Shown: in pieces, positions 1 to 17,785 of the stretch
Position numbering within the stretch: position 1 is the stretch's first letter
How the letters are laid out: every line of letters begins with the position of its first letter
IMG/VR virus record: IMGVR_UViG_3300023256_001082
Span: 1 to 25,339 of that record
Source: a virus
Lineage: Duplodnaviria; Caudoviricetes
Reading direction: 5' to 3' (one strand)
DNA length: 25,339 bases
Notes under the pieces: generated by a model
Database searches by the model: none
Seen by the model: only the letters and a program-made list of their open reading frames with translations
Told to the model about the DNA's origin: nothing
Position numbers and translations under genes: made by a program

Positions 1-885
1 AATCCCCAAAAATGTAGTTTCTTCTTGAATACCTCCACTATCTGTCAAAACAATCTTAGCTTGAGAAATTAAAGCTAAAAAATCAAAATAACCAAGAGGC
101 TTAATAATTCCCAAATCTTTGATTCCACAATCTTCTAATTCAAGAATTTTTTGAGTCCGAGGATGAATTGGAAAAATTATCTTTATTTTACTTTCGATTT
201 CTGTAAAAAGATTCAAAAAATATCCCAAATTCTTTAAATTATCAACATTCACAGGACGATGCAAAGTCAAAACAGCATAATTCTTTTTTCTTAAATCTAA
301 TTTTTTAAGAATCCTTGATTTTCGAATTCCAAGTTTCAAACTTTTCAAAGAATCAATTGCTGTATTGCCTACTAAATGAATTTTTTCTTTTGAAATTCCT
401 TCTTCTAAAAGATTTTTGACCCCACTCGGCTCAGTAACAAACAATAAATCAGAGATATGATCGGTAAGTCGTCTATTTATCTCTTCGGGCATCGATGTAT
501 CAAAACTCCTCAATCCTGCCTCAATATGAACCACAGGAATATGTAATTTAGCAGCAACTAAAGCTCCAGCTAAAGTTGTATTAGAATCACCTACTACAAC
601 AACAAAATTCGGTTTTCCTTTTAAAAGAACTGGCTCCAATCTTTTCATTATTTCTGCTGTTTGGAAAGCATGTGAACCACTACCAACTTTTAAATCATAA
701 TTGGGTTTAGGAATGTTCAACTCTCGAAAAAAAACTTTAGACATCTCATAATCATAATGCTGACCTGTATTAACTAACATCGTTTTTATTTGATGATGCT
801 TTTTCGCCTCTTTCACGAAAGAAGCAATTTTTATAATGTCAGGCCTTATTCCTGCTACACAAAAAATTCTTAGTTTATAATCCAT
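1..885 (-). CDS. wecB: UDP-N-acetylglucosamine 2-epimerase (non-hydrolysing), 3' end runs off the window
   Basis: Not in ORF track. Manual translation from ATG at 885: MDYKLRIFCVAGIRPDIIK...NTGQHYD...VVGDSNTTLAGALVAAKLHIPVVHIEAGLRSFD..MPEEINRRLTDHISDLLF, the hallmark WecB motifs. Confidence 0.95.
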   Translation of the reverse strand, partial: MDYKLRIFCVAGIRPDIIKIASFVKEAKKHHQIKTMLVNTGQHYDYEMSKVFFRELNIPKPNYDLKVGSGSHAFQTAEIMKRLEPVLLKGKPNFVVVVGDSNTTLAGALVAAKLHIPVVHIEAGLRSFDTSMPEEINRRLTDHISDLLFVTEPSGVKNLLEEGISKEKIHLVGNTAIDSLKSLKLGIRKSRILKKLDLRKKNYAVLTLHRPVNVDNLKNLGYFLNLFTEIESKIKIIFPIHPRTQKILELEDCGIKDLGIIKPLGYFDFLALISQAKIVLTDSGGIQEETTFLGI

Positions 886-1084
886 TGGTAATTTCTTTTA
901 TTCTTTCTAAATTTTCTAACGACTGATGTTGACGATTTAAAAATTTCCTAATTATATCTTTATGGTTACAATTTATTTCTCTCAATCCTGCTGGACAATT
1001 GCACTCTAATTTATTTCTTGTCTCCTGAACTATATAATATAAATCTTCTTTAGTTTTTGATTGAACTTCAAATCTTCTATTCAT
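875..1084 (-). CDS. Small SWIM-type zinc-finger protein
   Basis: CNCPAGLREINCNH fits CxC-xn-CxH. ATG at 1084 overlaps the upstream stop; the track start at 1093 is also possible. Confidence 0.7.
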   Translation of the reverse strand: MNRRFEVQSKTKEDLYYIVQETRNKLECNCPAGLREINCNHKDIIRKFLNRQHQSLENLERIKEITNGL

Positions 1085-1865
1085 AATTTTCAAAATAATC
1101 TCTTATGCCAGATTCGACCATATAATCTGGCTTGAATCCCCAATTAAGATTTGCCCTAGTAAAAGTTTGATACTTATCTATATAAGGATTTTCAATGAAC
1201 CTGGGTTCAACCATGACTTCTAATGTTTGAATAACAATTTTCAGTATATCTCTGAAATCTGTTGCTACCCCAGTTCCCAAATCATAAATTCCACTTTTCA
1301 TTTTTTCTGCCATCCTAAAACCCTTAATGATATCTTTGACATAAATAAAGTCCCTTTTATAATCACCTTTAAAAATAACAGGTCTCTCACCTTTTGAAAT
1401 TTGTTCTTTCCACTGAGTAATTACACTAGCATCTTTTCCTTTTGGTTTTTCTTGTTGACCATAACAATTAAATGGTCTCAATCCAACAATTTCCATTTTG
1501 TCAAAATATCTTTTTGCCATTTCGTCAATCATTCTCTTAGATTCACTATAAGCATTTAAAGATCCTTTTCCATTTCCATAAACACTAGCACTTGATGCAT
1601 AAATTAATCTTATTTTGTTATCAAAAGCATATCTTAAAACATTCAAAAACCCCATAATATTATTCCTATACATTTCCATATCATCAGGATATGTTGTACT
1701 AGTATTTGCTGCTAAATGATAAATCATATCAGGTTTCTCTCTTGGAATAAATCCAAGAGAAACATCTGAATTAAATAATTCAATATTTTCTTCTCTATTC
1801 TTTAATAATGTTTCAAGAAGATTAGAGCCAATAAAGCCCTGACCTCCTGTAATTAAATATTTCAT
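1077..1865 (-). CDS. hldD: ADP-L-glycero-D-manno-heptose 6-epimerase-like extended SDR
   Basis: ITGGQGFIGSNL Rossmann motif, YASSASVYG, YSESK (YxxxK), GLRPFNCYGQQEKPKG..ASV, RDFIYVKD and YQTFTRANL match RfaD/HldD. Start placed at the ATGA overlap at 1865. Confidence 0.8.
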   Translation of the reverse strand: MKYLITGGQGFIGSNLLETLLKNREENIELFNSDVSLGFIPREKPDMIYHLAANTSTTYPDDMEMYRNNIMGFLNVLRYAFDNKIRLIYASSASVYGNGKGSLNAYSESKRMIDEMAKRYFDKMEIVGLRPFNCYGQQEKPKGKDASVITQWKEQISKGERPVIFKGDYKRDFIYVKDIIKGFRMAEKMKSGIYDLGTGVATDFRDILKIVIQTLEVMVEPRFIENPYIDKYQTFTRANLNWGFKPDYMVESGIRDYFENYE

Positions 1866-2488
1866 ACTTTTATTATATGACAATTTGGACAAAGTTTTTC
1901 TAAAGCAACAATTACTTTTGGACTATCTTCAAAATATTCTTCGATTCCTAGCCTATTAATCATTTGAGATTTCCACTCAATTTCTCGTTCAATTGTTTTT
2001 TCGTTCAAACTAATCGGATTGAAATAAACTGGATGATTTTTTCTAGTTTCTTCATCAACTTTTTCTATCTCATCAATAGTTCTACTTGTAATCACAGGTG
2101 CACCTTTCTGAGGTCGTATTCCAGCCTTAATGACACCATCATAGTCATAAGCTTGAAACAAGTGTGCCTTACCTGACATATACTTCCTGTAAGAATCTTT
2201 TTCATCATGATGAGAAGAAAATTCGATAATTTGAGCATTCGTCAAACCAGTAAAACGATGCCAAGTATTTGGTTGAATGTGGACTGAATCTTCTGGCTTC
2301 ATTATCCATTTCTTATCATCAACTTCCATTAATATCTTTCCTCTAATGAGATAAAAAACTTCATCTTTCTTTTTATGACAATGAAGACTACAGCGATATC
2401 CCCTATTGAGAATAAGTTTCTTTCCACAATAATCTTCATTCCATATCCACTTTTCCTTACCCCAAACTTTTTCAACTTCTTTAATCAT
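1862..2488 (-). CDS. Cupin (sugar isomerase-like) fused to a HAD-like phosphatase domain
   Basis: N-term EKVWGKE..SLHCHKKKDEVFY..IQPNTWHRF is a cupin metal motif. C-term AYDYDGVI (DxDG) and YFEDS are HAD motifs I and IV. Confidence 0.75.
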   Translation of the reverse strand: MIKEVEKVWGKEKWIWNEDYCGKKLILNRGYRCSLHCHKKKDEVFYLIRGKILMEVDDKKWIMKPEDSVHIQPNTWHRFTGLTNAQIIEFSSHHDEKDSYRKYMSGKAHLFQAYDYDGVIKAGIRPQKGAPVITSRTIDEIEKVDEETRKNHPVYFNPISLNEKTIEREIEWKSQMINRLGIEEYFEDSPKVIVALEKLCPNCHIIKV

Positions 2489-3267
2489 TGATTTAATTCT
2501 CTTAAAGTAATAGCAGAAGTTCCAAAACGAGAAATAACAATTCCAGCAGCTTTATTAGCAAGCTCCATCATTTTTTGTGTATTTGTCAAGCCAATCGCTA
2601 AACAATATATAAGAACTGCTATTACTGTATCTCCTGCACCAGATACATCAATAACTTCTTTTGTGATAGCAGGAACATTCATTTTAAATTCTCCATCTTT
2701 ATAATAATTAATTCCTTTTCCACTTTGAGTAATAAAAGCTTGAGGAAAATTCTTATTTTCAGCTTCTTCATACTCTTTTTTGTTAATCTTTAAAATCTGA
2801 GTTCCCTCAAAGACTGATAAATCTTTCTTTTTAGTATCAACAATCGTTGCTTTTCCACCTTTGATAATTCCCTTATTATAATCTATAAAAGCAATAATAT
2901 CAAATTCTGAAAATGATGGATACTCCATATTAGCCAAATCTTCTTCTCGATAAACTTTTGGTTCATCCACCCTTAAAAGTTGTTGCCTCAAAGCAGCAAA
3001 TCTAGTTTTTACTAATGATACACAATTCTTTGGAGAAACAACAGGAAAGTTAAGCTCCTTTATATAATTTTCATCTACTATAGTAAATACAACTGGCTCA
3101 ATTTCTAAACCAAATAAATTTTTAGCAACATTTAAAGCACCACCTGGACGAGTTTCAGTTGCTCCTACATCAAGAATTGGTACTGGGGCTTCTGGAGAAA
3201 TTCTTTCTACTTCTCCAAGACAATACTTATCTAAAAAACTATCTCCAACTATTGCAACTTTTTTCAT
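2485..3267 (-). CDS. hldA: D-glycero-beta-D-manno-heptose-7-phosphate kinase (RfaE/HldE domain I, PfkB family)
   Basis: VGDSFLDKY..GEVERISPEAPVP, PGGALNVAKNL, KTRF..QQLLRVD and DVSGAGDTVIA. Confidence 0.9.
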   Translation of the reverse strand: MKKVAIVGDSFLDKYCLGEVERISPEAPVPILDVGATETRPGGALNVAKNLFGLEIEPVVFTIVDENYIKELNFPVVSPKNCVSLVKTRFAALRQQLLRVDEPKVYREEDLANMEYPSFSEFDIIAFIDYNKGIIKGGKATIVDTKKKDLSVFEGTQILKINKKEYEEAENKNFPQAFITQSGKGINYYKDGEFKMNVPAITKEVIDVSGAGDTVIAVLIYCLAIGLTNTQKMMELANKAAGIVISRFGTSAITLRELNQ

Positions 3268-4253
3268 GATATATAACCTCCTTTTATTTTTGGTAAATTT
3301 TTATCAAAAGAACGACCTTTAATCTCTTGAATTAATCTAGTGGTCGAATGATGTTCCAGTGTCGGAATAATCACTATTTGCCCACCATAACTTTCTACAA
3401 ACTCATGACCTATTACTGTCTTTCTAGTATAATCACTACCTTTTATCACTATATCTGGTTTTACCTTTTTCATTAAACGCAAAGGATTAAGTTCGTCAAA
3501 AATTTCAACCTTATCAATATATTTTATAGATTCAAGTAATTTCTTTCTCTTTTCTTGATTATTAATGGGCTCTCTTTTTATTTTAGTAGCTGATCTATCT
3601 GAATTCAAGCCCACTATCAATATATCACCAAGTTTTTTGGCTTTTTCGAATAAATAAATATGTCCAACATGAATCAAATCAAAAACACCATTTACAAACA
3701 CAACTTTTTCCTTTCTATATAAAGCACTATAAATATCCTTTCTTACCCCACACTCAACCTCTGGATAGCCTGATTTGATAAGTTTAAATCCTCTTGTCTC
3801 AAAAAATAAATCTAAACTTCTTTTTGTAAAAAAATGTAAATGCTCACCAGTGTCAAATTTAAAATGCTTCCATCCCATTAACTTTTTCCCTTCAGGAAGA
3901 ATTGGAAGTGAAACATAAACATAATTAGTCTTTTTAAATAATTTATTTAATACCCGAAAATCTGGAAAATGTTCCAAAACATCACAGAAAAAAACCAGAT
4001 CATAAAAATCATGCCTAATTCCAGTATATTTTATTGGAAATTTACCCAAATCAAAAGAATCAACTGTTATTCCTTTGGGAGCAAATTTGGTTAAAAAACT
4101 TGCTCCAGCCCCATAATCTAAAGCAATTTTGGGTTTTATTTCTTTAACAAAATCCCAGCGAACTTTATTAAGTATTTTCGCTGTTTTTTCATAAGCTTTT
4201 GAAATTGTTTTCCAATATTCTTTATTATATTGAAAATAAATATTTTTCTTCAT
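3264..4253 (-). CDS. hldC: Class I SAM methyltransferase fused to heptose-1-phosphate nucleotidyltransferase (RfaE/HldE domain II)
   Basis: N-term ALDYGAG, DVLEHF and EHLHFFT. C-term FVNGVFDLIHVGH, VGLNSDRS, KPDIVIKGSDY and STT. Start moved from 4340 to ATG 4253 because 4272-4396 is hairpin-rich. Confidence 0.85.
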   Translation of the reverse strand: MKKNIYFQYNKEYWKTISKAYEKTAKILNKVRWDFVKEIKPKIALDYGAGASFLTKFAPKGITVDSFDLGKFPIKYTGIRHDFYDLVFFCDVLEHFPDFRVLNKLFKKTNYVYVSLPILPEGKKLMGWKHFKFDTGEHLHFFTKRSLDLFFETRGFKLIKSGYPEVECGVRKDIYSALYRKEKVVFVNGVFDLIHVGHIYLFEKAKKLGDILIVGLNSDRSATKIKREPINNQEKRKKLLESIKYIDKVEIFDELNPLRLMKKVKPDIVIKGSDYTRKTVIGHEFVESYGGQIVIIPTLEHHSTTRLIQEIKGRSFDKNLPKIKGGYIS

Positions 4254-4271
4254 ATTGGGAATCTCTTTTAA

Positions 4272-4396
4272 TGGTTGGGGGACATTGGAAAGGTCTAATC
4301 CTCCAACCAATCTTGTATCCTTAAAACCTTTCCATCCCATTGGTTTCGCTGAAACTCCACAAGTAAAGTTTCTCCACCAATGGAAGACTTAAGGAT
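4272..4396 (-). other. Two stem-loops between the capsid gene and the sugar cluster (attenuator or processing site candidate)
   Basis: Inverted repeats 4317-4324/4389-4396, 4337-4344/4376-4383, 4351-4356/4367-4372 and 4272-4282/4299-4309. Confidence 0.55.
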
Positions 4397-4424: not shown

Positions 4425-5363
4425 TTAGTAATCGCTACTACCAGCATAAGCGTATTGCCACATTCCAAATCCTGCATTTCCACGCCAGTCTACTCCGAAG
4501 AAGATTTTCTTTCTCATAAAGTCTTCTTGAGTATTACCAGCGAGAGTACTGAATTTGATATCTTGCCTAAGTTGCAAGATAAGTGGTTTAACTATGCCCG
4601 AAGTGTCCATTACAGACCAAAAATTGGTAGGTACGTGAGGGGTAACATATAAATCAAGTGCACCTTGCATTACATTTGTAGCAAGCTTTTGTGCATTTGC
4701 AATCTGAGTTGGGAAATAGGTACTGTTAAGAATTTCTCGAGCCAAGAACTGATTAGTAGGGTGAACTACTAACAAGTTTGGTCGGATATCCATAATATTA
4801 CCTTTGTCATCCACAAATTGCTGCATTGCTGTCATAGCTGCCTGAATGGCTACACTACTGAAAGTTGTTCCTGTAGCAATATTGGATTGAATCCCTGAAC
4901 TACCTGAAGTATGAGCTGCTGAAAAGAAAGGTACACCATCATAACTTGTAATACCTTTTCCTGCAAACAATCCAGTTCCAGTGGTTAGATTACCTTGACC
5001 CAAAAGGGTGTAAACTAATCTTCCCCAGAACCTTCTTGCTTTATCAGCTAAATCTCTTACTCTGATACCAATTTGACCATATTGTTCATCATCAAGTGCA
5101 TTACGACCTACTGCGATAGTGCTTTCCCAGTCGTAATTCCTAATTGCGAATTCAAGTTCATTTAAACCTTCTGTGATTCTTTCATCTTTCCACTCTCTTA
5201 AATCAGGAACACCTCCGAGCCATGGATATGTCTCATTAGCTTTAGTTGATTTAATTTGAGTAGCAACTTTTTTCCATTCTGGTTCGTACATCTTCAACTG
5301 TTTCATGAACTCCTTTTTCATTCCCGCAAGTAATAGATTAGGTATATCTGTTCTGACTAACAT
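4425..5363 (-). CDS. Major capsid protein, Mu gpT-like
   Basis: ETYPWLGGVPDLREW, IRNYDWESTIAVGRNALDDEQYG, YDGVPFFSAAH, KPLILQLR and GVDWRGNAGFGMWQYA; position after protease and decoration genes. Confidence 0.9.
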   Translation of the reverse strand: MLVRTDIPNLLLAGMKKEFMKQLKMYEPEWKKVATQIKSTKANETYPWLGGVPDLREWKDERITEGLNELEFAIRNYDWESTIAVGRNALDDEQYGQIGIRVRDLADKARRFWGRLVYTLLGQGNLTTGTGLFAGKGITSYDGVPFFSAAHTSGSSGIQSNIATGTTFSSVAIQAAMTAMQQFVDDKGNIMDIRPNLLVVHPTNQFLAREILNSTYFPTQIANAQKLATNVMQGALDLYVTPHVPTNFWSVMDTSGIVKPLILQLRQDIKFSTLAGNTQEDFMRKKIFFGVDWRGNAGFGMWQYAYAGSSDY

Positions 5364-5365: not shown

Positions 5366-5899
5366 TTATGAGCTTTCTGAACTAGAAGATGAACTTTTTG
5401 AACTTGAGCTGGATGAACTAGAACTGAATGAGCTTGAACTTGAACTTGAAGAACTCCAAGATTCTTCAACCCATCCCATTTGACAAGGACAACAAACGGC
5501 TACCTTGACTTTGGTTGCACTAATATATCCAACACAATTACCTACTAACATTCCATTGGTTGTAGATTGACGAAGAGCAACAGTATTGTCATCAAGTGCA
5601 TATACTTGTCTGCCAACCCAAGCTTGGGAAGCACCAGTACATGGTAGTTGAAAAACACCATTTAGAAATACTCTTACGCCTCTATCTCCATTACTCTCTC
5701 CAGCGACTGCAACTGAGTTTTCAACGGCAATTCCTGCCATATTGACTGCTGCAGAATCTGTAGCAGGCACTAACCAACCATTAGCGTTTTGGGTAACAAC
5801 AATTGCTCCCTTGTAAACGGTACTAGCAGCTAGAATGGAATAGTAGATTATATCTCCATCTTGACGATTATCCTCATAAGCCGTTGTTAATACGGCCAT
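5366..5899 (-). CDS. Head decoration/cement protein (DUF2190-like) with C-terminal poly-Ser tail
   Basis: VYKGAIV, AGIAVE, GVFQL and VGRQVYALDDNTV are typical of small proteins next to Mu-like capsid genes. Confidence 0.7.
   Translation of the reverse strand: MAVLTTAYEDNRQDGDIIYYSILAASTVYKGAIVVTQNANGWLVPATDSAAVNMAGIAVENSVAVAGESNGDRGVRVFLNGVFQLPCTGASQAWVGRQVYALDDNTVALRQSTTNGMLVGNCVGYISATKVKVAVCCPCQMGWVEESWSSSSSSSSSFSSSSSSSSSKSSSSSSESS
5369..5455 (-). repeat. Poly-serine tract (26 Ser in the last 29 residues)
   Basis: S9-F-S9-K-S6-E-S2 encoded by mixed AGT/TCA/TCT/AGC/TCC codons. Confidence 0.95.
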
Positions 5900-5933: not shown

Positions 5934-7883
5934 TTAAAATAGAGTTGATTCTTCCTTTTTTCCTTTTCCTTCTTTATTTTTTTTGAAATCCTTGTAGGTA
6001 TCTTTTTGGATATCTTCACTAAATCCCATATTATCCATTTGTTCTTTCACTTCTTCAGGGATTTTTTCTTCATCCTTTTTATTACCCTCAATGGTTCCAA
6101 ACTCTTCTAAAGAGAAAATAGGACTTCTAGATTCCAAATACTTCTTCAAAGCTTTACGGATATCTACTTTTCTTCCATCAGCTAATTCGATAGGAGTATC
6201 TGATTGTAAAAGTGGAAGTAGAAGATCTTTTTCAGCAGGAGTCACTTGACCTTGCTTCAAAAGTTCTTCAAATATTTTCTCAGCTTCAGCTAACTCAACT
6301 CTCTCTTTTTTAGCTTTAGCCTCTTCAGTTTCTTCCTCAGTTTCAGTTTCCTCAGTTTCAGTTTCTTCGGTTGAAGCTTCCTCAGTTTCTTCTTCCTCTC
6401 CATCCTCGGTTTCTTTACCGACTTCTGGAGACTCAGATTTCTTTGAATCTTCTTCTGTTGAAGTCTCTTCTTCTGTAGGAGTCTCTTCAGTAGATTCTCT
6501 TTCTGGAGTTTCCTCCTTTGGAGTTTCTTCTGAAGTTACTTCTTCTGAAGTTTCTTCTGAAGTTTCATTATCTTCATTTAAACTTACTTTTTCTTCTAAT
6601 TTTTGTATTTTTTCTGCCATTTGACTAAGCGTTAAGTGTACATCTATATTCATAATAGGAATTACTATACTGTCCTTGAAATCATCTGAGAGAGGAACAA
6701 AACTTTCCAATCCCTTGATATAAGGTTCATTTACTAATGCTGCATGGAATAAAGTTGGACCAACGGATTTACTTGTATCTTTTCTAAAGTAATTTTCTGC
6801 AAAACTGGCAGAAATTCCCTTAATAAGTCCTTTCTTAATTTTTTCAGCAATAGTTTCATCCTTAACATCAATTGTTGCCATTAATTTATCACCATCCTTT
6901 GATAATTTCAAATCAGCTACCTGACCAACATTTTTAGAAGGATCATCAGTTGTAGGATGTCCTAGAGGAACAAAAACATTATCAATAACTTTAGATTTAA
7001 AGTTTTTGACAATAGTCTTTAACATTTCCTTTGTTACATCTAATACACCTGTCCTACTTGCATTATGTTGCCATTTTCCTACTCTCAATAATTCTTTCTT
7101 AAATTCAGAAAACTCTTTTTTGTCTTCTAAATCAATAGCACCAGAATTCATGACACTATAGACAATTTTTTCCTCAGTTAATTCTGTTTCTTCTTTCTTT
7201 TCCTCTTCAGGGGTTTCCTCAGAAGTTTCTTCAGGAGTTTCTTCTGTAGGAGCTTCTTCTTCTACAGGAGTTTCTTCTTCAGTAGCTTCTTCGGTAGCCT
7301 CTTCAGTGGTTTCTTCTTCAGTAGTTTCCTCTGATTCTCCACCCTCACTTAAGTCTATTTCTTTTATTTCTTTGTTTTTCATGTTTTTATCAGCTTCAGC
7401 CATTTTGATAGCTTTTGAAACATACCATCGAATAGCTTTGGCCTCTGGATTAGCACCTTGTGGTACCAAAGATACCTCTATAAGGTGCAATTCTTTAATT
7501 AACATAATCCTCAAATCAGGAAGTAGTTCGACCTTTTCTGCCTTTAATATCTGCCCTTTTATCGACAAACAATTCAGTTCTCCTGATTTGACTTTTTTTA
7601 TTATTGATTTTTTTGTTACTTCGGTTTTTACCCAAATTTTACCTTTTTTAAAATGGCAATCAATCAATTTGCCAATCGTTTCCTCCGTATGATTTATACA
7701 AAACTTTCCTTCTTTCTTAAAATCACTTATACATTTTCTTAATGCCTCATCTGAAATTATATCATTCTGTAAATCAAAATCATTTGCAGCTGCAAATCCT
7801 TCAAAAATGAACTTTCCTTCTTTTTCTTTCTTTTCTGATAACTGTAGAGGAAATTCAAACTTTATTTTTGCATACTCTATCAT
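5934..7883 (-). CDS. Prohead protease/scaffold with two protease-like domains and Glu/Thr-rich linkers
   Basis: Domain 1: FEGFAA..DLQNDII..INH..LSIKG..EVSLVPQGANPEA (HK97/S78-like). Domain 2: LLRVGKW..LGH..GISASF..GPTLFHAALVNEPYIKGL (Mu gpI-like). Confidence 0.85.
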   Translation of the reverse strand: MIEYAKIKFEFPLQLSEKKEKEGKFIFEGFAAANDFDLQNDIISDEALRKCISDFKKEGKFCINHTEETIGKLIDCHFKKGKIWVKTEVTKKSIIKKVKSGELNCLSIKGQILKAEKVELLPDLRIMLIKELHLIEVSLVPQGANPEAKAIRWYVSKAIKMAEADKNMKNKEIKEIDLSEGGESEETTEEETTEEATEEATEEETPVEEEAPTEETPEETSEETPEEEKKEETELTEEKIVYSVMNSGAIDLEDKKEFSEFKKELLRVGKWQHNASRTGVLDVTKEMLKTIVKNFKSKVIDNVFVPLGHPTTDDPSKNVGQVADLKLSKDGDKLMATIDVKDETIAEKIKKGLIKGISASFAENYFRKDTSKSVGPTLFHAALVNEPYIKGLESFVPLSDDFKDSIVIPIMNIDVHLTLSQMAEKIQKLEEKVSLNEDNETSEETSEEVTSEETPKEETPERESTEETPTEEETSTEEDSKKSESPEVGKETEDGEEEETEEASTEETETEETETEEETEEAKAKKERVELAEAEKIFEELLKQGQVTPAEKDLLLPLLQSDTPIELADGRKVDIRKALKKYLESRSPIFSLEEFGTIEGNKKDEEKIPEEVKEQMDNMGFSEDIQKDTYKDFKKNKEGKGKKEESTLF

Positions 7884-7889
7884 TTTTTT

Positions 7890-7918
7890 ATTTTAATTAG
7901 ATTATCACAAAAGGTCAA
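7890..7918 (-). promoter_or_regulatory. Sigma70-type promoter, probably leaderless, for protease/capsid genes
   Basis: TTGACC-17 nt-TAAAAT with the ATG only 6 nt after the -10 box. Confidence 0.6.
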
Positions 7919-10188
7919 GTGTTTAACTTCTCCTTGTGCTTAGCATCACTTTCTACCTTGTCTTTTTTGATTCGATCAATTAATTCTTTTTGTCTTTTTA
8001 ATTTTTTCAAACTCTTTAATAAAGATTTTCCAGTATCTAATCCATCATCCACTTTAACCATTTTAGCAAAATCAACTAACTCTTTAATATGAGCTCCTGA
8101 ATATCCATTTGTATTATCCAATATAGATTTCATTAAACTATCCTCTATTTTTTCTTCAGTCCATTTAGAAATCATAGCTTTCCGCATATCTCTAGTTGGT
8201 AAAGAGAATTCTAATACATCATGAAATCTTCCAGGTCTATCTAACAAAGCATCAGGAAATTCTTCGGGATTATTAGAAGTAAGAATTGTTATCATTCCAT
8301 CATTACCTTTTAATCCATCCATCTCTGTTTTCAATAAATCCATAGAATAAGATTTTAACCATGTATCTATGTCTTCCATAAATAATATTGCTGGTGTCAA
8401 TTTTCTAGCCAAACTAAATGCCATTTTTAAAGCAGTAAGTGGACCAATTTTGTCAAAATCTCTACTCGATACCCAAATAAATGTAGCATCTTTTAAAGTA
8501 TTCATTAAAACTTTCCCAGTTTTAGTCTTTCCAGTTCCAGGCTTTCCAACAAACATCATTCCTCTACTCAACGCATTCTCACCCTTAGCATTTAATTGAT
8601 TTACAGATTTCTTGATACTATCCATTACTTCACTATCCAATATCAAGTCATCAAACACATCACTTGTTTTTTTAAGAAAATCACCACTTAATCCAAATAT
8701 CTCTCCTCTTAAGAAATTATTTTTATTAGTCCATTCATGAACTTTATTTAATAACTCCTTATTCCAATCTTTGTCTTCAATTGTACTTAATAATTGAATT
8801 TGAAGACTATACATGCTTGGTTGAATTTTCATTATAACCTTATTATACCCATCAACTTTATAAAAACTTGTTCCATTAACTAGGAAATCATTAGATTTTT
8901 GAGAATTAAGCTTTATAGTCTCATATTCCAAAGGTACTTCCTTTCCACTATAAGTAAAGTTTCTACAATCAGCTAATTCAAATTCAGACAAAATCTTCTT
9001 AAATCCAGACAAGTAAGTTCCCATCATTGGACTTGGAATTTCGTAACTATTTTGATAGATTTTCTTTACATCGCAATTTAAAAATCTACTAAACATTTCG
9101 TACTCAAAACTAGCCGCTACACTTTCAACCGACTCAACATCAAAGTTTGAAGAAAGACTTAAATTCCATCTAACTCCTTTTTCTTTTATATCATCAGTAC
9201 CTTCTCCAAATGAATATTGAGTTACCTCTTCGAATGATTTTGAAGCTACATGGAATGATCCACCCTTGGCCTGACAATGGCTTCTTGCTGAAGAAGCATT
9301 CCAAGCATCTTTCTTATACCTCATTGATTGTAATTCAGATTTTCCATCCTTAATACCATAAATATGTGCTATACATTTTCCACTACTCTTAACCGCACAA
9401 TTTTTTCTAGCAAATCTATCATATCCACTAGGTGAAGATAATCTACAAGAATGCTCACTTGGATATGGTTTTGATAATTCATCAGATTTCTCAACCTTAG
9501 TTAAGCCTTTTTGTCTGTCAAAAGAAACCACATATCCCTTTTTAGCCAATTTCTCTTCAATTTCTTTAGCTCTATGATCCAAACTATCTACAATTTTATG
9601 TTTTAACTTTCTTCCCAATATCTCTCTTCTAAAAAGAATATGATATTTGATACATTCATCAGAAGGAGCACTCAAGGTATTCCAAAGTCCATGAATTAAG
9701 TCATGTCCTCTCATTAAATCTGCATTTTTGAACTCAGATGGATCTCCGATATCAACATTCTTAAAAACTACACTATCCAACCAAGAATAAACACCATCTG
9801 GCTTAATAATCTTTTTAGGAGGATCAAATTTAGAAATTATCTCAACAGAGTAATAATAGAAGGTTTCTTCATATGGCCACCACAATTTACGCTCTTTTTC
9901 TGATATTTTATGGAATTTTGCCAAATTTTTGAACTCTTTTGTGTTAATTTCCTTAGCTGGTTTTATTCTAATTATGGCCAAAGCAACCTCGTCCTCAATA
10001 AGATATATAGGAATATCAATATATTTTGCAAATTTCTCACAAGTTACTATGGCTTTTTTTTCTTTTTCCCAAATCATAGTCCCATAAGGCTTCAAAAGTA
10101 TCTTTCCAGGTAAAAAAATTCTCTTCCCTGGCTCTAAAAGATCAGGAATATCTGATGGAACTACCATTTTTTTTGTTTGATTAATCAT
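7915..10188 (-). CDS. Multidomain protein with C-terminal classical AAA+ ATPase
   Basis: Walker A GKPGTGKT, Walker B ILFMEDID, SRH TSNNPEEFPDALLDRPGRF. The N-terminal ~500 aa are not confidently assigned. Confidence 0.85.
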   Translation of the reverse strand: MINQTKKMVVPSDIPDLLEPGKRIFLPGKILLKPYGTMIWEKEKKAIVTCEKFAKYIDIPIYLIEDEVALAIIRIKPAKEINTKEFKNLAKFHKISEKERKLWWPYEETFYYYSVEIISKFDPPKKIIKPDGVYSWLDSVVFKNVDIGDPSEFKNADLMRGHDLIHGLWNTLSAPSDECIKYHILFRREILGRKLKHKIVDSLDHRAKEIEEKLAKKGYVVSFDRQKGLTKVEKSDELSKPYPSEHSCRLSSPSGYDRFARKNCAVKSSGKCIAHIYGIKDGKSELQSMRYKKDAWNASSARSHCQAKGGSFHVASKSFEEVTQYSFGEGTDDIKEKGVRWNLSLSSNFDVESVESVAASFEYEMFSRFLNCDVKKIYQNSYEIPSPMMGTYLSGFKKILSEFELADCRNFTYSGKEVPLEYETIKLNSQKSNDFLVNGTSFYKVDGYNKVIMKIQPSMYSLQIQLLSTIEDKDWNKELLNKVHEWTNKNNFLRGEIFGLSGDFLKKTSDVFDDLILDSEVMDSIKKSVNQLNAKGENALSRGMMFVGKPGTGKTKTGKVLMNTLKDATFIWVSSRDFDKIGPLTALKMAFSLARKLTPAILFMEDIDTWLKSYSMDLLKTEMDGLKGNDGMITILTSNNPEEFPDALLDRPGRFHDVLEFSLPTRDMRKAMISKWTEEKIEDSLMKSILDNTNGYSGAHIKELVDFAKMVKVDDGLDTGKSLLKSLKKLKRQKELIDRIKKDKVESDAKHKEKLNT

Positions 10189-10303
10189 CTTTCTTTACTT
10201 TAATTTCAAGAGGCCAACTACATTTTTTACAATGTGAGTATTCTTCTTTATTTTTTGTCCCACACTTAGGACATTTTTTTCTGTTCTCGTTTGCAGATGA
10301 CAT
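10181..10303 (-). CDS. 40-aa zinc-ribbon protein
   Basis: Manual translation MSSANENRKKCPKCGTKNKEEYSHCKKCSWPLEIKVKKDD. It fills the portal-AAA gap and overlaps both neighbours. Confidence 0.7.
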   Translation of the reverse strand: MSSANENRKKCPKCGTKNKEEYSHCKKCSWPLEIKVKKDD

Positions 10304-11789
10304 CTGTGAATTTTTCACCTAATGCGAAACATTTATCTTCAAAATTAGGTTGAATTTTTAAATTTAATAATTGCTCCCTAAGTTTTTTTGGAGTTTTAGG
10401 AGCATCAATCTCCATTTGGTCGGCTTTTGATTTCTTACCTTGCTCAAAAGCAAGAAGTGCTTTTTTATTTTCATCTTCTTTTTCATCTTCTTTTTCATCA
10501 TTTTTCTTTCCAGTTCCATCGTTTACCCATTTCAATTTTAAAGTTTTCGATGCTTCTGTAATAACTTCTTGAATAAATCCATCAGGAAGATCATATCCAG
10601 TTTTCATAATTTGACTAAATACATCTCTTAGGAATGCGACAGATGCATCTGCAAGTTTTTCAAATTTTATCTTAGGATAAACACCAGTTCCATAATTCCA
10701 ATCTATGAGAGGAGCTACTGCATAAGTATTAAGAGTGGCTTCCATTTGTTTCATTATAGATGCGATAGCTAAATCCACATATTGAGAAGCAGGAGTTCCT
10801 TTTCCATAAGGATAAGCATATTTAACCTGATCTAAAACTTGAACTAATGCAGATTTTGACATTTGATTATTATGATGATTTATAAGTGGCATTGGATCAA
10901 ATCCTCCCTCTCCACCTCTTTCAATCTCTAATTCAAGACCAGGTGGTAGTGTTACTCTAGTATTAACACCAATAGTATCTATTACTCCTTCTGCAGTTTC
11001 TCTTTCTTCTGCAGTGGTAGTTTGATTAATTTTTAAAATCTTTAAACCTGTAGTATCTATTTCAGCTTTTTTGTGAGAAATATAATATAGTTTGTGTTTT
11101 TTGTCATAATGATAATAAGCAGTTTTTAAAATAGATTCTCCATAAAGCCAATGTTTTTCCTTTTGAAATGTAAACAACATACATTTCTCTGGAGGAATGG
11201 CAACATCTTTTGTTTCTGATCCCAAGGTTGCACTCTGATAAACTCCCTTGAAACCACCATGTTCATCAGCTTTTAACTGAACAGTTTGAGCATCTCTTGG
11301 AGCCAACTTTCTCCAACTAACCTTTCCCTTATACTTTCCTTTTTCAATAATCTGAGCAACCTTTTCATAGACTCGAAAACCTTCAAAAATACCTCTAGTC
11401 ATATCGGCAACAATAAAAGGAAGCGGTGTAGTCATACCGCCCAAATTTGGAGGAGAAAAAAATGCAGTTTCGATAAAATCTCTTTCACCTTTATCACCTT
11501 CTGCAGGCTCTACATAAAGTGGAGTCGAAACTATTGGCAGAGTTAAAAGTCTAACTATTGCTTGAACTTCACCATCATTTCTTTGCATTTCAATATAATC
11601 TTCTGGTTTTAATTCATCAGGATTTTCTTCTGTTTCATAAGTACCGATAACTCCCTCCCTACCGATTCCTAACTCTTTTGTAAACTCAGCAATGCTCAAT
11701 ACCTTTTTAGTATCAACTTTTTTCTCTACTTCTTCCTTTTTTGGTTTTCTTTTTAAAAAACTAAAGAATGGCACAGTTTTAAAATGCAC
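10266..11789 (-). CDS. Portal protein, DUF935/Mu gp29-like
   Basis: 507 aa with GFRVYEKV, IPPEKC, LYGESILKTAYYHY, PLIDWNYG and YPKIKF; first gene of the head module. GTG at 11774 is an alternative start. Confidence 0.8.
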   Translation of the reverse strand: MHFKTVPFFSFLKRKPKKEEVEKKVDTKKVLSIAEFTKELGIGREGVIGTYETEENPDELKPEDYIEMQRNDGEVQAIVRLLTLPIVSTPLYVEPAEGDKGERDFIETAFFSPPNLGGMTTPLPFIVADMTRGIFEGFRVYEKVAQIIEKGKYKGKVSWRKLAPRDAQTVQLKADEHGGFKGVYQSATLGSETKDVAIPPEKCMLFTFQKEKHWLYGESILKTAYYHYDKKHKLYYISHKKAEIDTTGLKILKINQTTTAEERETAEGVIDTIGVNTRVTLPPGLELEIERGGEGGFDPMPLINHHNNQMSKSALVQVLDQVKYAYPYGKGTPASQYVDLAIASIMKQMEATLNTYAVAPLIDWNYGTGVYPKIKFEKLADASVAFLRDVFSQIMKTGYDLPDGFIQEVITEASKTLKLKWVNDGTGKKNDEKEDEKEDENKKALLAFEQGKKSKADQMEIDAPKTPKKLREQLLNLKIQPNFEDKCFALGEKFTDVICKREQKKMS

Positions 11790-12989: not shown

Positions 12990-13018
12990 ATTATTACTTA
13001 TTAAAAACTTAGTGTCAA
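12990..13018 (-). promoter_or_regulatory. Sigma70-type promoter candidate, near-leaderless
   Basis: TTGACA-17-AATAAT, with the ATG 8 nt after the -10 box. Confidence 0.4.
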
Positions 13019-13159
13019 GTGTAAAATAGGGAAGCTGACTGCTTTAGCCGCTTTATATTTTATATGTGTGTGACTTATTGCAAGCCAGCTCCCTTTCTCC
13101 CAAGGGAGAATTATCATGTGTCTATAATAATTTTCCCCCATTAAATGAACTATTATTGG

Positions 13160-13188
13160 AATATAACATTACTGAAACATAAGGTCAA
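13160..13188 (-). promoter_or_regulatory. Leftward sigma70-type promoter
   Basis: TTGACC-17-TATATT with extended TG. Confidence 0.55.
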
Positions 13189-13279
13189 GTGTTTGTAAAT
13201 CTGCGAGTTTCAGAAAAAAAATTATAAAAATTTTGCCCTATACTATATATAGAAAAGACATAGAGATAACAAGGGGTTG

Positions 13280-13293
13280 TGAACCTAGGTTCA
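13280..13293. promoter_or_regulatory. Perfect palindrome TGAACCTAGGTTCA (operator candidate)
   Basis: Lies just downstream of the 13312-13339 leftward promoter; related copies occur elsewhere. Confidence 0.6.
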
Positions 13294-13311
13294 TATATAT
13301 AGTGTGTTTAT

Positions 13312-13339
13312 ATTATAACAGTATATAGGTAGATGTCAA
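13312..13339 (-). promoter_or_regulatory. Leftward consensus sigma70 promoter
   Basis: TTGACA-16-TATAAT with extended TG. Confidence 0.65.
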
Positions 13340-13459
13340 GAGTTAAGTTTAAAGCGAGTTTTGGGATTTTTATGTAGGTTGGGAGATACAGGGAGTATCC
13401 TTTAATCTATATTTATTTTTTTTTATCCCTTTTTATAACTAGTTGAATTGCTAGGGGGT

Positions 13460-13489
13460 GGCTTGGGCTTGAGCTTGGGCTTGAGCTTG
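13460..13489 (+). repeat. 5 x (G/A)GCTTG tandem hexamer
   Basis: ggcttg ggcttg agcttg ggcttg agcttg. Confidence 0.9.
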
Positions 13490-13507
13490 TTTTAACTTGA
13501 TCAATAG

Positions 13508-13565
13508 TTTTCCACAAGTCAATTTTGTTTGACTACTTGACAGGGGGGGGTGATTTTGGTATTAT
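13508..13565 (+). promoter_or_regulatory. DnaA box plus rightward early promoter
   Basis: TTTTCCACA at 13508-13516; TTGACA(13537)-17 nt including G8-TATTAT with extended TG. Confidence 0.7.
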
Positions 13566-13605
13566 TAACTATGGAGGGTATAACTATTTTATACCATTAA
13601 AAAAG

Positions 13606-13633
13606 TTTGCTGGAACTTTTAAAAATAAATATG
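13606..13633 (+). repeat. 28-nt leader repeat copy 1 (TTTGCTGGAACTTTWAAAAATAAATATG)
   Basis: Copies at 14344-14371 and 15313-15340 differ by one base; each ends in a start codon. Confidence 0.95.
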
Positions 13634-13837
13634 ACTAAAAAAGATTATGTTAAAATCGCTTCTATTATTAAGGAGGCGTGGAATAAAACAACCGATAAAC
13701 AGGCAGTAAGGCATATAATAACTGGACTAGAAAAAATATTTTCTGATGATAATGAAAGATTTGATATTGAAAGATTTGAAAAAGCCATTGACGATAAACC
13801 GATTATAAACTTTAATTTTTTAAAAGAAAATGATTAA
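13631..13837 (+). CDS. Hypothetical early protein
   Basis: MTKKDYVKIA..FSDDNERFDIERF. Start reassigned to the ATG of the leader repeat. Confidence 0.8.
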   Translation: MTKKDYVKIASIIKEAWNKTTDKQAVRHIITGLEKIFSDDNERFDIERFEKAIDDKPIINFNFLKEND

Positions 13838-13991
13838 GAAAATAAACTGGTCAATGATCCAAAAAGAAAAAAGAGCCAAAGAGATAAGAGATAAAATAAA
13901 GTTGGTTGCTTGTTGGTCCAGTCTGGTATGCTTGGCTATTATCTTGCTTCCTATAATATGGTTGTGCTTGGTTCTCTTGTTAAGTATTTGA
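13830..13991 (+). CDS. 53-aa membrane protein
   Basis: Manual translation MIKKINWSMIQKEKRAKEIRDKIKLVACWSSLVCLAIILLPIIWLCLVLLLSI. Confidence 0.65.
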   Translation: MIKKINWSMIQKEKRAKEIRDKIKLVACWSSLVCLAIILLPIIWLCLVLLLSI

Positions 13992-14044
13992 GATTTTTTA
14001 AGGGGTATTATACCAGCTTTATAATATCTCTTATAAAGATTTTA
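13989..14044 (+). other. Stop-codon-anchored stem-loop, loop CCAGCTT
   Basis: Stem 14001-14012/14020-14031 with two G-U pairs. Confidence 0.75.
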
Positions 14045-14101
14045 AAGTAAGTTAAAAAATATAATAACCCTAGCCGAATAAATAAGGTAAGGGGAAATAA
14101 T

Positions 14102-14275
14102 ATGGAAAAAATAGAAGGGGCAGAGTATAGCATAACATCAATAGATAATTATAATGCCTATGAGCTAGAGGGTAATAATAATTATTTAAATGATGTAAAT
14201 GTTAGTAATCTAAAAAAAGGTGATAAGGTGGTTATAGCTTGGGAGGGAGGAGAAAAAGAAATTAAAATTGGTTAA
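14102..14275 (+). CDS. 57-aa hypothetical protein
   Basis: Manual translation MEKIEGAEYSITSID...EIKIG; AAGGGG upstream. Confidence 0.65.
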   Translation: MEKIEGAEYSITSIDNYNAYELEGNNNYLNDVNVSNLKKGDKVVIAWEGGEKEIKIG

Positions 14276-14326
14276 TACCTTTTATCCTATCCCTAAAAAG
14301 TTTTTGGGGATAGTAAAAAGAGATTA
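14273..14326 (+). other. Stop-codon-anchored stem-loop, short loop
   Basis: CTATCCCTAAAA/TTTTGGGGATAG plus outer stem. Confidence 0.75.
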
Positions 14327-14343
14327 AAAAATTAACTAAAGTT

Positions 14344-14371
14344 TTTGCTGGAACTTTAAAAAATAAATATG
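14344..14371 (+). repeat. 28-nt leader repeat copy 2
   Basis: tttgctggaactttaaaaaataaatatg. Confidence 0.95.
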
Positions 14372-14992
14372 GAAACAATAAAAGTAGTCAATTACAAGGG
14401 TTTTGATATAAAAATATATCAAGATGATAATTTTGAAAGTCCTGAAAATTGGGATAATGAAAATGTTTTTCTAGTCAATTACCATAGGGACTTTTGTGTA
14501 AAAAATGACAAGATCATAACTGAAGATGATGTTAAAAACTGGTATACTGGTAAAAAGATAGAACAACAAAAAGATTATCATATCTTTATGTTATCAATGT
14601 TAAGCCATAGTGGAGTATGGTTATCTCTTGAAAATAATTTTGCTTGTGATGGTGGTGGTTGGGATACAAGCCATATTGGAATTGTATTGGTTAGTAAAAA
14701 AGAAGCAAGGACTAAAAAGAAAGCAAGAGAATTAGCCGAAGGACTTTTAGAAAACTGGAACGATTGTCTATCTGGAAATGTTTATGGATTTATGATAGAT
14801 GAGTTTAATGAAAGTATTTGGGGATTTTATGGGGATATTGATAAGAGTGGAATTATTGATGAAGCAAGAGGAATTATTGATTATGAAGTAAAAGAAAGGA
14901 CTAAAAAGCATTTGAAAAGATTAAAAGCATATATTGGAAATAAAGTGAGCTTGAATAAGAGAAAGCCATTAAGATCAACAATATTAGCTTAA
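14369..14992 (+). CDS. Conserved phage early hypothetical protein
   Basis: 207 aa with HSGV..WDTS..G and L.GNVYGF..ESIWGFYG motifs that I recognise from phage early regions; function unknown. Confidence 0.8.
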   Translation: METIKVVNYKGFDIKIYQDDNFESPENWDNENVFLVNYHRDFCVKNDKIITEDDVKNWYTGKKIEQQKDYHIFMLSMLSHSGVWLSLENNFACDGGGWDTSHIGIVLVSKKEARTKKKARELAEGLLENWNDCLSGNVYGFMIDEFNESIWGFYGDIDKSGIIDEARGIIDYEVKERTKKHLKRLKAYIGNKVSLNKRKPLRSTILA

Positions 14993-15056
14993 TTGTGCTT
15001 TTTGTAAGTTAGCATTATGTCCAGCAACATAGTGCTAACTACAAAGAATATAATTA
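14990..15056 (+). other. Stop-codon-anchored stem-loop, loop CCAGCA
   Basis: 14-bp stem 15007-15020/15027-15040 with one G-U pair. Confidence 0.85.
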
Positions 15057-15094
15057 AAAAGGTCAGATCATAAAAATTAAAAAAGCATAAAAAA

Positions 15095-15253
15095 ATGAAA
15101 CAAGGAATTAAAAAAAGATTAAAATATCTTAAAGAGCAGATTAAAAATGAAAATATAAGTTATGGTGAAATAGCAGAATTACAAGGACTAGCAGAACATA
15201 TTGATAAAAATGATGTTGAATTGAGAGAGTGGACAAGTGTTAAAGAGTTTTAG
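15095..15253 (+). CDS. 52-aa hypothetical protein
   Basis: Manual translation MKQGIKKRLKYLKEQIKNENISYGEIAELQGLAEHIDKNDVELREWTSVKEF. Confidence 0.7.
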   Translation: MKQGIKKRLKYLKEQIKNENISYGEIAELQGLAEHIDKNDVELREWTSVKEF

Positions 15254-15304
15254 TCGGTTGTTAGATAGCATAAAAAAGTTTTATGCTATCCATACAAAAG
15301 ATTA
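15251..15304 (+). other. Stop-codon-anchored stem-loop, short loop
   Basis: GATAGCATAAAA-AAG-TTTTATGCTATC. Confidence 0.75.
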
Positions 15305-15312
15305 ACATAGAG

Positions 15313-15340
15313 TTTGCTGGAACTTTAAAAAATAAATATG
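15313..15340 (+). repeat. 28-nt leader repeat copy 3
   Basis: tttgctggaactttaaaaaataaatatg. Confidence 0.95.
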
Positions 15341-15733
15341 AAAATAAAAGAATTAAAAAAAGCTATTTTAGATAATTACCAAAATAGCAAAAGCAGAAAA
15401 TTAGACAATTATTATTCTGATGAGATTAGAAAAGGTTTAGATGAATTATTGAATTATGCTGATGATACAGAAATTGATGTAAAAGAGATAGAAAACAATT
15501 TATCAGAAATTGAAATATCAGAATTAGCAGATAGTATGGTTGATCCATATACGGCAGATTTATTGAAATGGTATTCTGATAATTTACACAGATGTTATTA
15601 TGCTGATGATTTTATGTCAGAAATGGGTGGTAAAAACTTTATTGAGATTTTGGTGGGTGGTCAATATATGTATTATTCTGAATTGTTGAATTATGTTTTT
15701 GAATTAATAAAAGATGAGTTAGAAAAGGAATAA
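15338..15733 (+). CDS. Acidic protein, possible Ocr-like DNA mimic (antirestriction)
   Basis: ISELADSMVDPYTADLL resembles the T7 Ocr core IHMAADNAVPHYYADIF; acidic, similar size, early position. Confidence 0.5.
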   Translation: MKIKELKKAILDNYQNSKSRKLDNYYSDEIRKGLDELLNYADDTEIDVKEIENNLSEIEISELADSMVDPYTADLLKWYSDNLHRCYYADDFMSEMGGKNFIEILVGGQYMYYSELLNYVFELIKDELEKE

Positions 15734-15795
15734 TTATATTCTTTTAGATAGCATTATATCCAGCAATATAGTGCTATCTGAAAAGGATAGAATTA
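15731..15795 (+). other. Stop-codon-anchored stem-loop, loop CCAGCA
   Basis: 14-bp stem 15746-15759/15766-15779 with one G-U pair. Confidence 0.85.
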
Positions 15796-15844
15796 GATCG
15801 TTTAAGAATAGAATAAATAAGCAAAAACTATTAAATAAATTGCT

Positions 15845-15910
15845 TAATTTGTAATAAGTGTCTATAAATACTTGGTCGTTTAAAAAAGAGTATTTGTAGA
15901 TAGCAAGTTA
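15845..15910 (+). other. Same-type stem-loop with no ORF in front of it
   Basis: TCTATAAATACTT/GAGTATTTGTAGA plus outer TAATTTGT/GCAAGTTA. Confidence 0.65.
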
Positions 15911-16004
15911 TAAATTAAGGTTGACAATCTATTTTCTATCCCCTTATAAAATGTTTGATTAAGGATTAAAAGGTCGGATTATTAAAAATTAAAAGTTAAA
16001 AGTT

Positions 16005-16196
16005 ATGATAACAAAAACAGAAGTCCATAGAGGATTTATTGGAAACAAAAAGGGTTGGGCTTTTTCCGTATATTTTAATAATGCGAATTATCCCAATTTA
16101 ATATCGGCTCTTTTTAAAACTAAAAGAGAAACAAAATCAGAGCTTGAAAGATATCTTGGAACAGGAGAGTATAAAACTTATGGTAGTGCGGAATAA
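16005..16196 (+). CDS. Hypothetical protein
   Basis: ORF track; followed by a perfect 15-bp hairpin at 16197-16231. Confidence 0.7.
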   Translation: MITKTEVHRGFIGNKKGWAFSVYFNNANYPNLISALFKTKRETKSELERYLGTGEYKTYGSAE

Positions 16197-16262
16197 TTTT
16201 TAGGGTATATATTTTGTATATACCCTAAAAAGCATAAAATTAATTAACCTGTTTATTAAAAA

Positions 16263-16451
16263 ATGAAAATGATAATTAAAATAGACCTAGAAAATGATTA
16301 TTGGATCATTAGATTTATTGATAATAATGGTGTAATCATTTTAGCAAAAACAAAGAATTATGAGGTTGCTAAAAGAAAGGCAGAAAAGTTTAGGAGGTAT
16401 TTAAGGGAGGGTAAATTATTAAAAGCAGAAAAGAGTATTGAAAAGTATTAA
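16263..16451 (+). CDS. Hypothetical protein
   Basis: ORF track; A-rich leader. Confidence 0.7.
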   Translation: MKMIIKIDLENDYWIIRFIDNNGVIILAKTKNYEVAKRKAEKFRRYLREGKLLKAEKSIEKY

Positions 16452-17782: not shown

Positions 17783-17785
17783 ATT

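Follow-up and report, generated by a model that had tools for sequence, protein, structure and literature searches.

A Cupin–HAD-Like Fusion Protein in a Viral Heptose Operon, a Likely Substitute for GmhA and Probably for GmhB

The Virus and Its Operon

The window considered here, i.e., the whole stretch of DNA that was analyzed, is an entire virus record of 25,339 bp, and its portal, protease, and capsid genes mark it as that of a tailed virus. Its minus strand carries a set of sugar genes, among them a fusion of a cupin with a HAD-like domain, next to the genes of the head:

1..885, minus strand: UDP-GlcNAc 2-epimerase (wecB), truncated at the edge of the window (TIGR00236, above cut-off)
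1077..1865, minus strand: HldD-like ADP-heptose 6-epimerase (TIGR02197, E 5e-56, below cut-off)
1862..2488, minus strand: cupin-HAD fusion gene, 208 aa (open reading frame, relatives, AlphaFold model with mean pLDDT 94)
1865..2164, minus strand: minimal cap-less HAD-like domain of the fusion, residues 109-208, probable heptose-1,7-bisphosphate phosphatase (motifs, fold)
2174..2488, minus strand: cupin domain of the fusion, residues 1-105, likely sedoheptulose-7-phosphate isomerase (Pfam, conservation, fold)
2485..3267, minus strand: RfaE domain I-like heptose-7-phosphate kinase, 260 aa (TIGR02198, E 1.3e-55, below cut-off)
3264..4340, minus strand: methyltransferase fused to an RfaE domain II-like heptose-1-phosphate nucleotidyltransferase (PF13489, PF01467; TIGR02199, E 2.9e-47)
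4425..5363, minus strand: Mu gpT-like major capsid protein, the next gene upstream of the sugar genes (PF10124, E 1.5e-58; phrog_371)
5366..5899, minus strand: virion cement protein ending in a poly-serine tail (PF09956)
5934..11789, minus strand: head module (prohead protease/scaffold 5934-7883, AAA ATPase 7915-10188, portal 10266-11789)

The initial annotation had recognized three enzymes of the ADP-heptose pathway (kinase, nucleotidyltransferase, and epimerase), had placed the fusion gene between the kinase and the epimerase, and had noted that gmhA and gmhB are absent from the window. All of this stands: the best NCBIfam matches of the neighboring genes are heptose models, every one below its curated cut-off (including TIGR02199 for the nucleotidyltransferase), homologs of the three enzymes share one operon, and gmhA and gmhB are absent from the window as well as from two near-identical records. 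The fusion gene overlaps both flanking genes by four bases (ATGA), its start with the kinase stop and its stop with the likely start of the epimerase, for which ATG at 1865 is more likely than the TTG at 1892 given by the ORF finder.

Several other features of the window were observed in passing. A 72-aa ORF with a CxC...CxH pattern (875-1093), lying between the epimerase and wecB, has no family match and is presumably a SWIM-like zinc finger. Between the portal and the protease, a 757-aa protein (7915-10188) ends in an AAA ATPase; at the same position a related virus, G003, carries other cargo, namely DNA ligase and metallo-beta-lactamase-fold domains. Around 13 kb both the GC skew and the coding strand switch, and in the remaining part (~13000-25339) the plus-strand arm contains small early-type genes set apart by long gaps in which no ORF reaches 80 aa.

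Anatomy and Viral Relatives of the Fusion Protein

That one 208-aa protein joins a metal-binding cupin to a DxDG...ED domain, as initially described, is confirmed by Pfam and by alignment. Searches returned 84 relatives, of which 30 span most of its length; with one partial sequence omitted, the alignment holds 29 sequences, the first row being the window's own cluster. The 28 further full-length fusion clusters are 57-83% identical to the query and come from several sources. Among longer proteins (297-2000 aa), of which the 8000 top-ranking candidates were scored, only three HAD fusions turned up, none with a kinase or nucleotidyltransferase; with scoring limited to those candidates, the search is a weak one. 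One protein of 417 aa (P0116) carries an HNH endonuclease domain at the N-terminus of a cupin-HAD fusion.

Ten fusion loci (L004-L010 and L012-L014) were surveyed using profiles seeded with E. coli proteins, viral proteins, and locus matches. Kinase and HldD are present in all ten, the nucleotidyltransferase in eight, a GT9-like gene in seven, and a capsid gene in eight, while the same profile search detected neither GmhA nor GmhB in any of the ten. Copies of gmhA or gmhB elsewhere in the genome, which would speak against the initial proposal, were sought in eight virus records, including two that are nearly identical to the window, and neither PF13580 nor TIGR01656 matched there, the controls matching in 11 and 14 of 14. 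One of the eight, G003, is 76,846 bp long with terminal repeats (CheckV completeness 45%); when 71 of the 78 ORFs of at least 90 aa listed for it were scanned with Pfam, duplicates and overlapping frames being left out, no SIS protein and no other HAD appeared. Its host is probably a bacterium, since it encodes a holin, a transglycosylase, and a peptidoglycan-binding domain.

In marine viruses, a different small HAD adjoins the cupin (46 loci by motif, 61 by profile). In the cultured Synechococcus phage S-SM2 (NC_015279.1; L408:987-3294), two small HADs are labelled phosphoheptose isomerase and the cupin is labelled cysteine dioxygenase, database labels that appear wrong; for the present cupin, "cysteine dioxygenase" (phrog_7851) was likewise rejected as a transferred label.

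The Cupin Domain

Residues 1-105 match Cupin_2 (PF07883; E 7e-12, above cut-off), MannoseP_isomer (PF01050; E 2e-5, at 25.2 bits just above the cut-off of 23.6), and Lyx_isomer (E 2e-4), whereas the NCBIfam model TIGR01479 scores far below its cut-off. The model has the beta-barrel fold of the cupin superfamily, and the alignment shows its His/His/Glu/His ligand set: the predicted metal ligands H36, H38, E43, and H77 are invariant in 29/29 full-length fusion relatives and in 53/53 rows of the wider family. Further invariant residues of the cupin are K7, K23, K41, E89, and R101. The top Foldseek match of the cupin model (E 8e-8) is Thermococcus 7ZVY, which we take from its PDB title to be a phosphomannose isomerase (PMI); in VIA, 7ZVY stands joint first with Streptomyces PAC13 (Z 15.2, rmsd 2.0, 102 aligned). 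The longest profile-to-structure matches are to D-lyxose isomerases in the barrel region only, and the D-lyxose isomerase family PF07385 is covered at 39 of its 222 profile positions. No SIS-fold match to PF13580 or TIGR00441 was obtained for the fusion in Pfam and NCBIfam scans.

Cupins beside NTP-transferase genes form a lower-scoring group, with a phosphomannomutase also present at one locus (L298). They share most of the invariant residues with the query family, but position 36 is Q in 5/5 of those checked as against H in 53/53 query-family rows, and they are read as the true PMI sister group of the query cupins. The QxH first motif and the GDP-mannose gene context of the PMI-type cupins that were fetched are thus replaced in the query by H36 and a heptose context. 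A cupin tree of 85 rows is too unresolved for a donor or host to be named, with support of 24/44 for the fusion group. In one fusion (L010:8747-9412), all four predicted cupin ligands have been lost (to Q, Y, K, and Y) and the HAD motifs are intact; this ligand-less cupin offers a natural negative control.

The HAD-Like Domain

HAD motifs I-IV are, in order, DxD, T/S, K, and an acidic pair. All four are present in that order in residues 109-208 (D115-x-D117-G, T134-x-R136, K173, and E187-D188), D115, D117, T134, R136, and K173 being kept in 29/29 relatives, E187 in 28/29, and D188 in 25/29. When the domain was shuffled 100,000 times, this motif order came up once, a frequency for a pattern written after the alignment had been inspected. 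As no Pfam, NCBIfam HAD, or PHROGs model matches the domain, its name rests on motifs and fold. A profile search of the PDB gave as its best HAD match a class B acid phosphatase at E 0.3 only; TIGR01656/GmhB does not match, and hhalign against E. coli GmhB returned a probability of 0.2%. The domain is confidently modeled (pLDDT 97), and its model matches PNKP phosphatases best (Z 8.9 and 8.6, rmsd 2.8-2.9, 98 aligned), tied with unrelated non-HAD Rossmann folds at Z 8.5. Foldseek also matched MDP-1 (E 2e-3), and those Atlas neighbors of the domain that have a Pfam family are all HADs (scores 0.85-0.87).

The best 80 of 178 viral loci with this domain comprise six fusions and 74 others, which together with L011 give 75 stand-alone relatives. 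Myo-inositol-1-phosphate synthase is found at 74 of these 75 loci, within 1.5 kb upstream in 71, whereas none of the 75 holds a kinase or cupin and three hold a nucleotidyltransferase; an expectation that stand-alone relatives would occur in heptose clusters was therefore rejected. The inositol synthase is in turn absent from 5/5 searched fusion-virus records and from loci L001-L252. Because its stand-alone relatives adjoin inositol-phosphate synthase rather than heptose genes, the domain looks like a recruited sugar-phosphate phosphatase, and the simplest history would have a small polyol-phosphate phosphatase move into the heptose operon and remain active there. Identity with the small HAD of marine-phage heptose clusters was considered and rejected, as the profiles share only motif I (profile probabilities 0.3% and 43%) and the HMMs miss each other's loci. 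The HAD-synthase pairs of L309-L382 (e.g., L309:6860-8360) lie near QueC-like, 5-hmdU-kinase-helical, methyltransferase, and glycosyltransferase genes and are likely an inositol module in phage DNA-modification clusters; relatives of the domain also occur in cultured Stenotrophomonas phages.

The Cupin and GmhA in Cellular Genomes

The survey of stand-alone cupins covered the 80 best of 256 GTDB loci, from 79 genomes whose record titles are mostly those of Woesearchaeota/Nanoarchaeota, Peribacteria, and Planctomycetota. These 80 loci hold the kinase in 56 cases, the nucleotidyltransferase in 51, GmhB in 39, GT9 in 39, HldD in 34, and GmhA in none; of the 49 cellular loci among them with kinase and nucleotidyltransferase, 38 have GmhB. 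Genome-wide, the kinase is present in 75/77 genomes of GTDB cupin loci. Full-length SIS proteins occur elsewhere in 10 of the 79 cupin genomes, and TIGR00441 matches at E<=1e-5 in 25 of them, in no case above cut-off. Two of the SIS proteins are GmhA-grade (E about 1e-41), and both genomes concerned hold two kinases. With an improved GmhA profile, the sole match among loci L001-L252 was at L024, a SIS protein 6 kb from the cupin.

The anti-correlation with gmhA that the initial annotation had proposed to check was found in two phylum samples, in which 0/18 kinase-positive cupin genomes have GmhA. The archaeal sample (251 genomes, phylum of G010), drawn so that genomes were not selected for having the cupin, was searched separately for kinase, cupin, and GmhA at thresholds of 1e-60, 1e-35, and 1e-40, respectively, set after the score gaps had been viewed. 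Its 58 kinase-positive genomes divide into 15 with the cupin only, 30 with GmhA only, none with both, and 13 with neither, so that GmhA occurs in 0/15 genomes with the cupin versus 30/43 without it; the split is 0/13 versus 30/43 minus the sample center and the unpublished G029, and 3/15 versus 32/43 if any SIS match at E<1e-18 is counted. Sixteen archaeal genomes have the cupin, and 15 of these have the kinase, which is adjacent in ten. In the Patescibacteria sample (341 genomes, phylum of the metagenome-assembled genome G033; kinase threshold 1e-50), 27 kinase-positive genomes comprise three with the cupin only, 22 with GmhA only, none with both, and two with neither, i.e., GmhA in 0/3 with the cupin versus 22/24 without. 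The p-values (Fisher p 1.3e-6 for the archaea; 0.003 for Patescibacteria, or 0.018 minus the center) overstate independence because metagenome-assembled genomes are incomplete and interrelated and the thresholds are post hoc. Three genomes flagged as unpublished (G015, G017, and G029) lie inside the counts, and the conclusions are independent of them.

Gene order also points to replacement. The same slot is filled by GmhA in GT9-GmhA-HldD-kinase-NT (L295) and by the cupin in GT9-cupin-HldD-kinase-GmhB+NT (L290), where NT is the nucleotidyltransferase; a like exchange is seen between L287 (cupin) and L301/L302 (GmhA), and the kinase-cupin fusions of L288 and L289 have counterparts in open frames of 506-527 aa that join the kinase to GmhA.

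Some genomes depart from this pattern. In four genomes without a kinase at threshold (G298, G666, G491, and G472), the cupin keeps its residues intact; the Patescibacteria sample, besides its three kinase-positive cupin genomes, has three cupins in genomes without a kinase match. At L395-L397 and L286, intact family cupins lie in housekeeping contexts in genomes without a heptose kinase match; these may be orphans or have another function. The 13 archaeal genomes with a kinase and neither isomerase (L263-L275; e.g., G097, G236, and G302) may have missing contigs or a third type of isomerase.

Destination of the Sugar

In L001, which is near-identical to the window, the operon continues to a weakly GT9-like gene, a UDP-glucose dehydrogenase, and a PEP mutase, followed further downstream by TPP-enzyme halves, an Fe-alcohol dehydrogenase, a CTP-transferase/LicD, and a methyltransferase. 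The GT9 label is a weak one (Pfam E 0.013; RfaQ E 1.5e-4 to 0.06), and kinship of the protein to TibC/Aah is not supported because it has no PDB sequence match. The stretch from the PEP mutase onward (L001:12492-15963), in which the TPP-dependent decarboxylase is split and the CTP-transferase+LicD protein has a serine tail, makes a phage-encoded phosphonate decoration possible.

A serine run ends the cement protein in the window, L004, L005, and L013, and in G003 serine runs are borne by five proteins, cement and tail tube among them. In this virus family, the poly-serine tracts observed in the window (5366-5899) and at L383:17155-17679, L386:1889-19805, and L392:4335-11758 lie on large proteins of the virion module such as cement and tail tube. 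Serine runs were absent from the plus strand of 77 other viral cupin loci and of 74 HAD-synthase loci, and they occur at 2/80 GTDB cupin loci. The cement protein is accordingly listed as a candidate sugar acceptor and the poly-serine tracts as candidate glycosylation sites, and O-heptosylation of the virion is plausible on these sequence grounds.

Proposed Function and Alternative Readings

The initial annotation had suggested that the fusion protein replaces both GmhA and GmhB. For the cupin, mutual exclusion, operon slot, and PMI-like fold together make the role of a GmhA substitute, i.e., a sedoheptulose-7-phosphate isomerase, very probable. The second half of the suggestion holds up less fully: intact motifs, gene context, and the lack of any other phosphatase in the fusion loci argue for the HAD-like domain as a GmhB substitute, and its relatives in inositol-synthase modules argue against, so that this assignment is probable at a clearly lower level. 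That one protein serves both steps is somewhat less assured again, though still the favored reading; the retention of HAD motifs in L010 after loss of the cupin ligands counts against it.

Among the alternatives, one would keep the cupin as the GmhA substitute and make the C-terminal domain a general phosphatase, or one acting on another sugar or polyol monophosphate, such as inositol phosphate or a different glycan precursor, leaving the GmhB step to the host. It draws on the association of the stand-alone relatives with inositol synthase and never with heptose clusters, on a commentary that describes the heptose phosphatase as absent in viruses (PMC11461863, in excerpt), and on the frequent location of gmhB outside heptose operons (it is absent from 7/10 fetched gmhA operons), for which reason the absence of gmhB from the fusion loci is itself weak evidence. 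Yet the inositol synthase is gone from the fusion viruses while the catalytic residues remain invariant, in all 10 loci the fused domain is part of the heptose operon, and other viruses place a different small HAD beside the cupin, which leaves a general monophosphatase unlikely. Where the cupin is unfused, a separate phosphatase usually adjoins it, either GmhB (cells) or another small HAD (marine viruses), and the heptose-bisphosphate phosphatase step would hence appear to be met in three ways: by the fused HAD, by the small HAD of marine viruses, and by cellular GmhB.

A more improbable alternative is that the cupin is itself a PMI or an NDP-sugar epimerase/keto-isomerase, with heptose-7-phosphate coming from the host or another enzyme. 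The PF01050 match and the best fold match would suit it, as would the family members without a kinase, the 13/58 kinase-positive archaea with neither enzyme, the tolerance of a ligand-less cupin in L010, and the cupin C3/C5 epimerases reported to act on GDP-heptose in Campylobacter (PMC7949155). A tailoring enzyme would, however, add to GmhA rather than exclude it, and exclusion in the two samples thus counts against such a role, while the PMI-type cupins beside NTP-transferases fall into their separate, lower-scoring Q36 group. Hardly credible, finally, is the idea that two unrelated small genes were joined by read-through or an assembly error; each domain is indeed far commoner alone than fused, but the 28 other full-length clusters, from several sources and at the identities given above, and the synteny kept across 10 fusion loci largely rule out a local accident of this kind.

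With the cupin as isomerase and the HAD-like domain as heptose-bisphosphate phosphatase, a mechanism may be outlined. The isomerization of fructose-6-phosphate to mannose-6-phosphate is the six-carbon analog of that of sedoheptulose-7-phosphate to heptose-7-phosphate, with the same C3-C5 stereochemistry. In the cupin, a divalent metal on H36/H38/E43/H77 would bind the C1-C2 oxygens of the opened ketose, with K7, K23, K41, and R101 holding the phosphate, and a C1-C2 shift would yield the manno aldose, thereby converting sedoheptulose-7-phosphate to D-glycero-D-manno-heptose-7-phosphate. After the neighboring kinase had added the 1-phosphate, D115 could attack the 7-phosphate of heptose-1,7-bisphosphate, with D117 as acid/base, T134, R136, and K173 holding the phosphate, and E187/D188 binding Mg. 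The nucleotidyltransferase and epimerase would complete NDP-heptose, which the GT9-like enzyme might transfer, most likely to virion serine tracts, this being the least supported step.

Taken at its widest, the proposal, for which the chances appear about even, is that PMI-type cupins have given rise to a second, unrelated class of sedoheptulose-7-phosphate isomerase, found in DPANN, Patescibacteria, some Planctomycetota, and many viruses, and here fused to a phosphatase from a phage inositol module so as to provide host-independent ADP-heptose for poly-serine virion proteins. ADP-heptose, an innate-immune agonist, also serves as a building block of lipopolysaccharide and protein glycans, and surveys recognize the pathway through homologs of GmhA and GmhB. 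If the proposal is true, the cupin isomerase and the 100-aa phosphatase would represent enzyme types new to two textbook steps, would close gaps in many pathways of archaea, CPR, and viruses that seem incomplete (of 28 kinase-positive genomes in the archaeal sample that lack GmhA, 15 would be covered), would provide a candidate for the viral phosphatase reported absent, and would correct database labels such as those of the S-SM2 cupin and small HADs.

Comparison With Known Systems

The fusion protein resembles GmhA and GmhB in proposed role but belongs to neither family. GmhA (SIS fold; TIGR00441, PF13580) and the cupin share an inferred reaction, an operon slot, and a type of fusion with the RfaE domain I kinase, whereas their folds are unrelated and they are mutually exclusive in two genome samples. 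Similarly, GmhB (HAD-IIIA; TIGR01656) and the HAD-like domain have in common motif I (DxD), later T, K, and acidic motifs, and the same inferred reaction, but the latter has 100 aa as against 191 aa, and its relatives are viral proteins linked to inositol synthase. The best fold matches of that domain, the PNKP 3'-phosphatase domains (4XRP and 5UJ0) and MDP-1 (1U7P), are only 9-12% identical to it at Z under 9; unlike PNKP, the query has no polynucleotide kinase domain, and its context is a different one.

Cupin PMIs (PF01050; Thermococcus 7ZVY/7ZVM) and D-lyxose isomerases (2Y0O and 7NZO) have a common fold and metal-site layout, share with the query K7, W9, G10, E12, K23, S34, H38, K41, E43, H77, E89, S91, and R101, and carry out ketose-to-manno-aldose chemistry of the kind that the query would perform by analogy. 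They differ from it in overall sequence (16-26% identity), in having Q rather than H at position 36, and in a GDP-mannose rather than heptose context. A cupin PGI is described as a convergent isomerase in the excerpted text of PMC12525153. No paper tying a cupin to sedoheptulose-7-phosphate isomerization was found among titles and abstract openings, subscription journals lying mostly outside the scope of the search.

According to two commentaries (PMC11461863 and PMC11573728, both in excerpt), the cross-kingdom study of NDP-heptose enzymes by Tang et al. (2024) reports a four-step pathway from sedoheptulose-7-phosphate that extends to viruses and archaea. Within the excerpted commentary text, no cupin is named, and the phosphatase is reported absent in viruses and eukaryotes alike (PMC11461863). 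The fusions listed in that commentary are of kinase with nucleotidyltransferase and of isomerase with kinase and nucleotidyltransferase, whereas the fusion described here would be one of isomerase with phosphatase.
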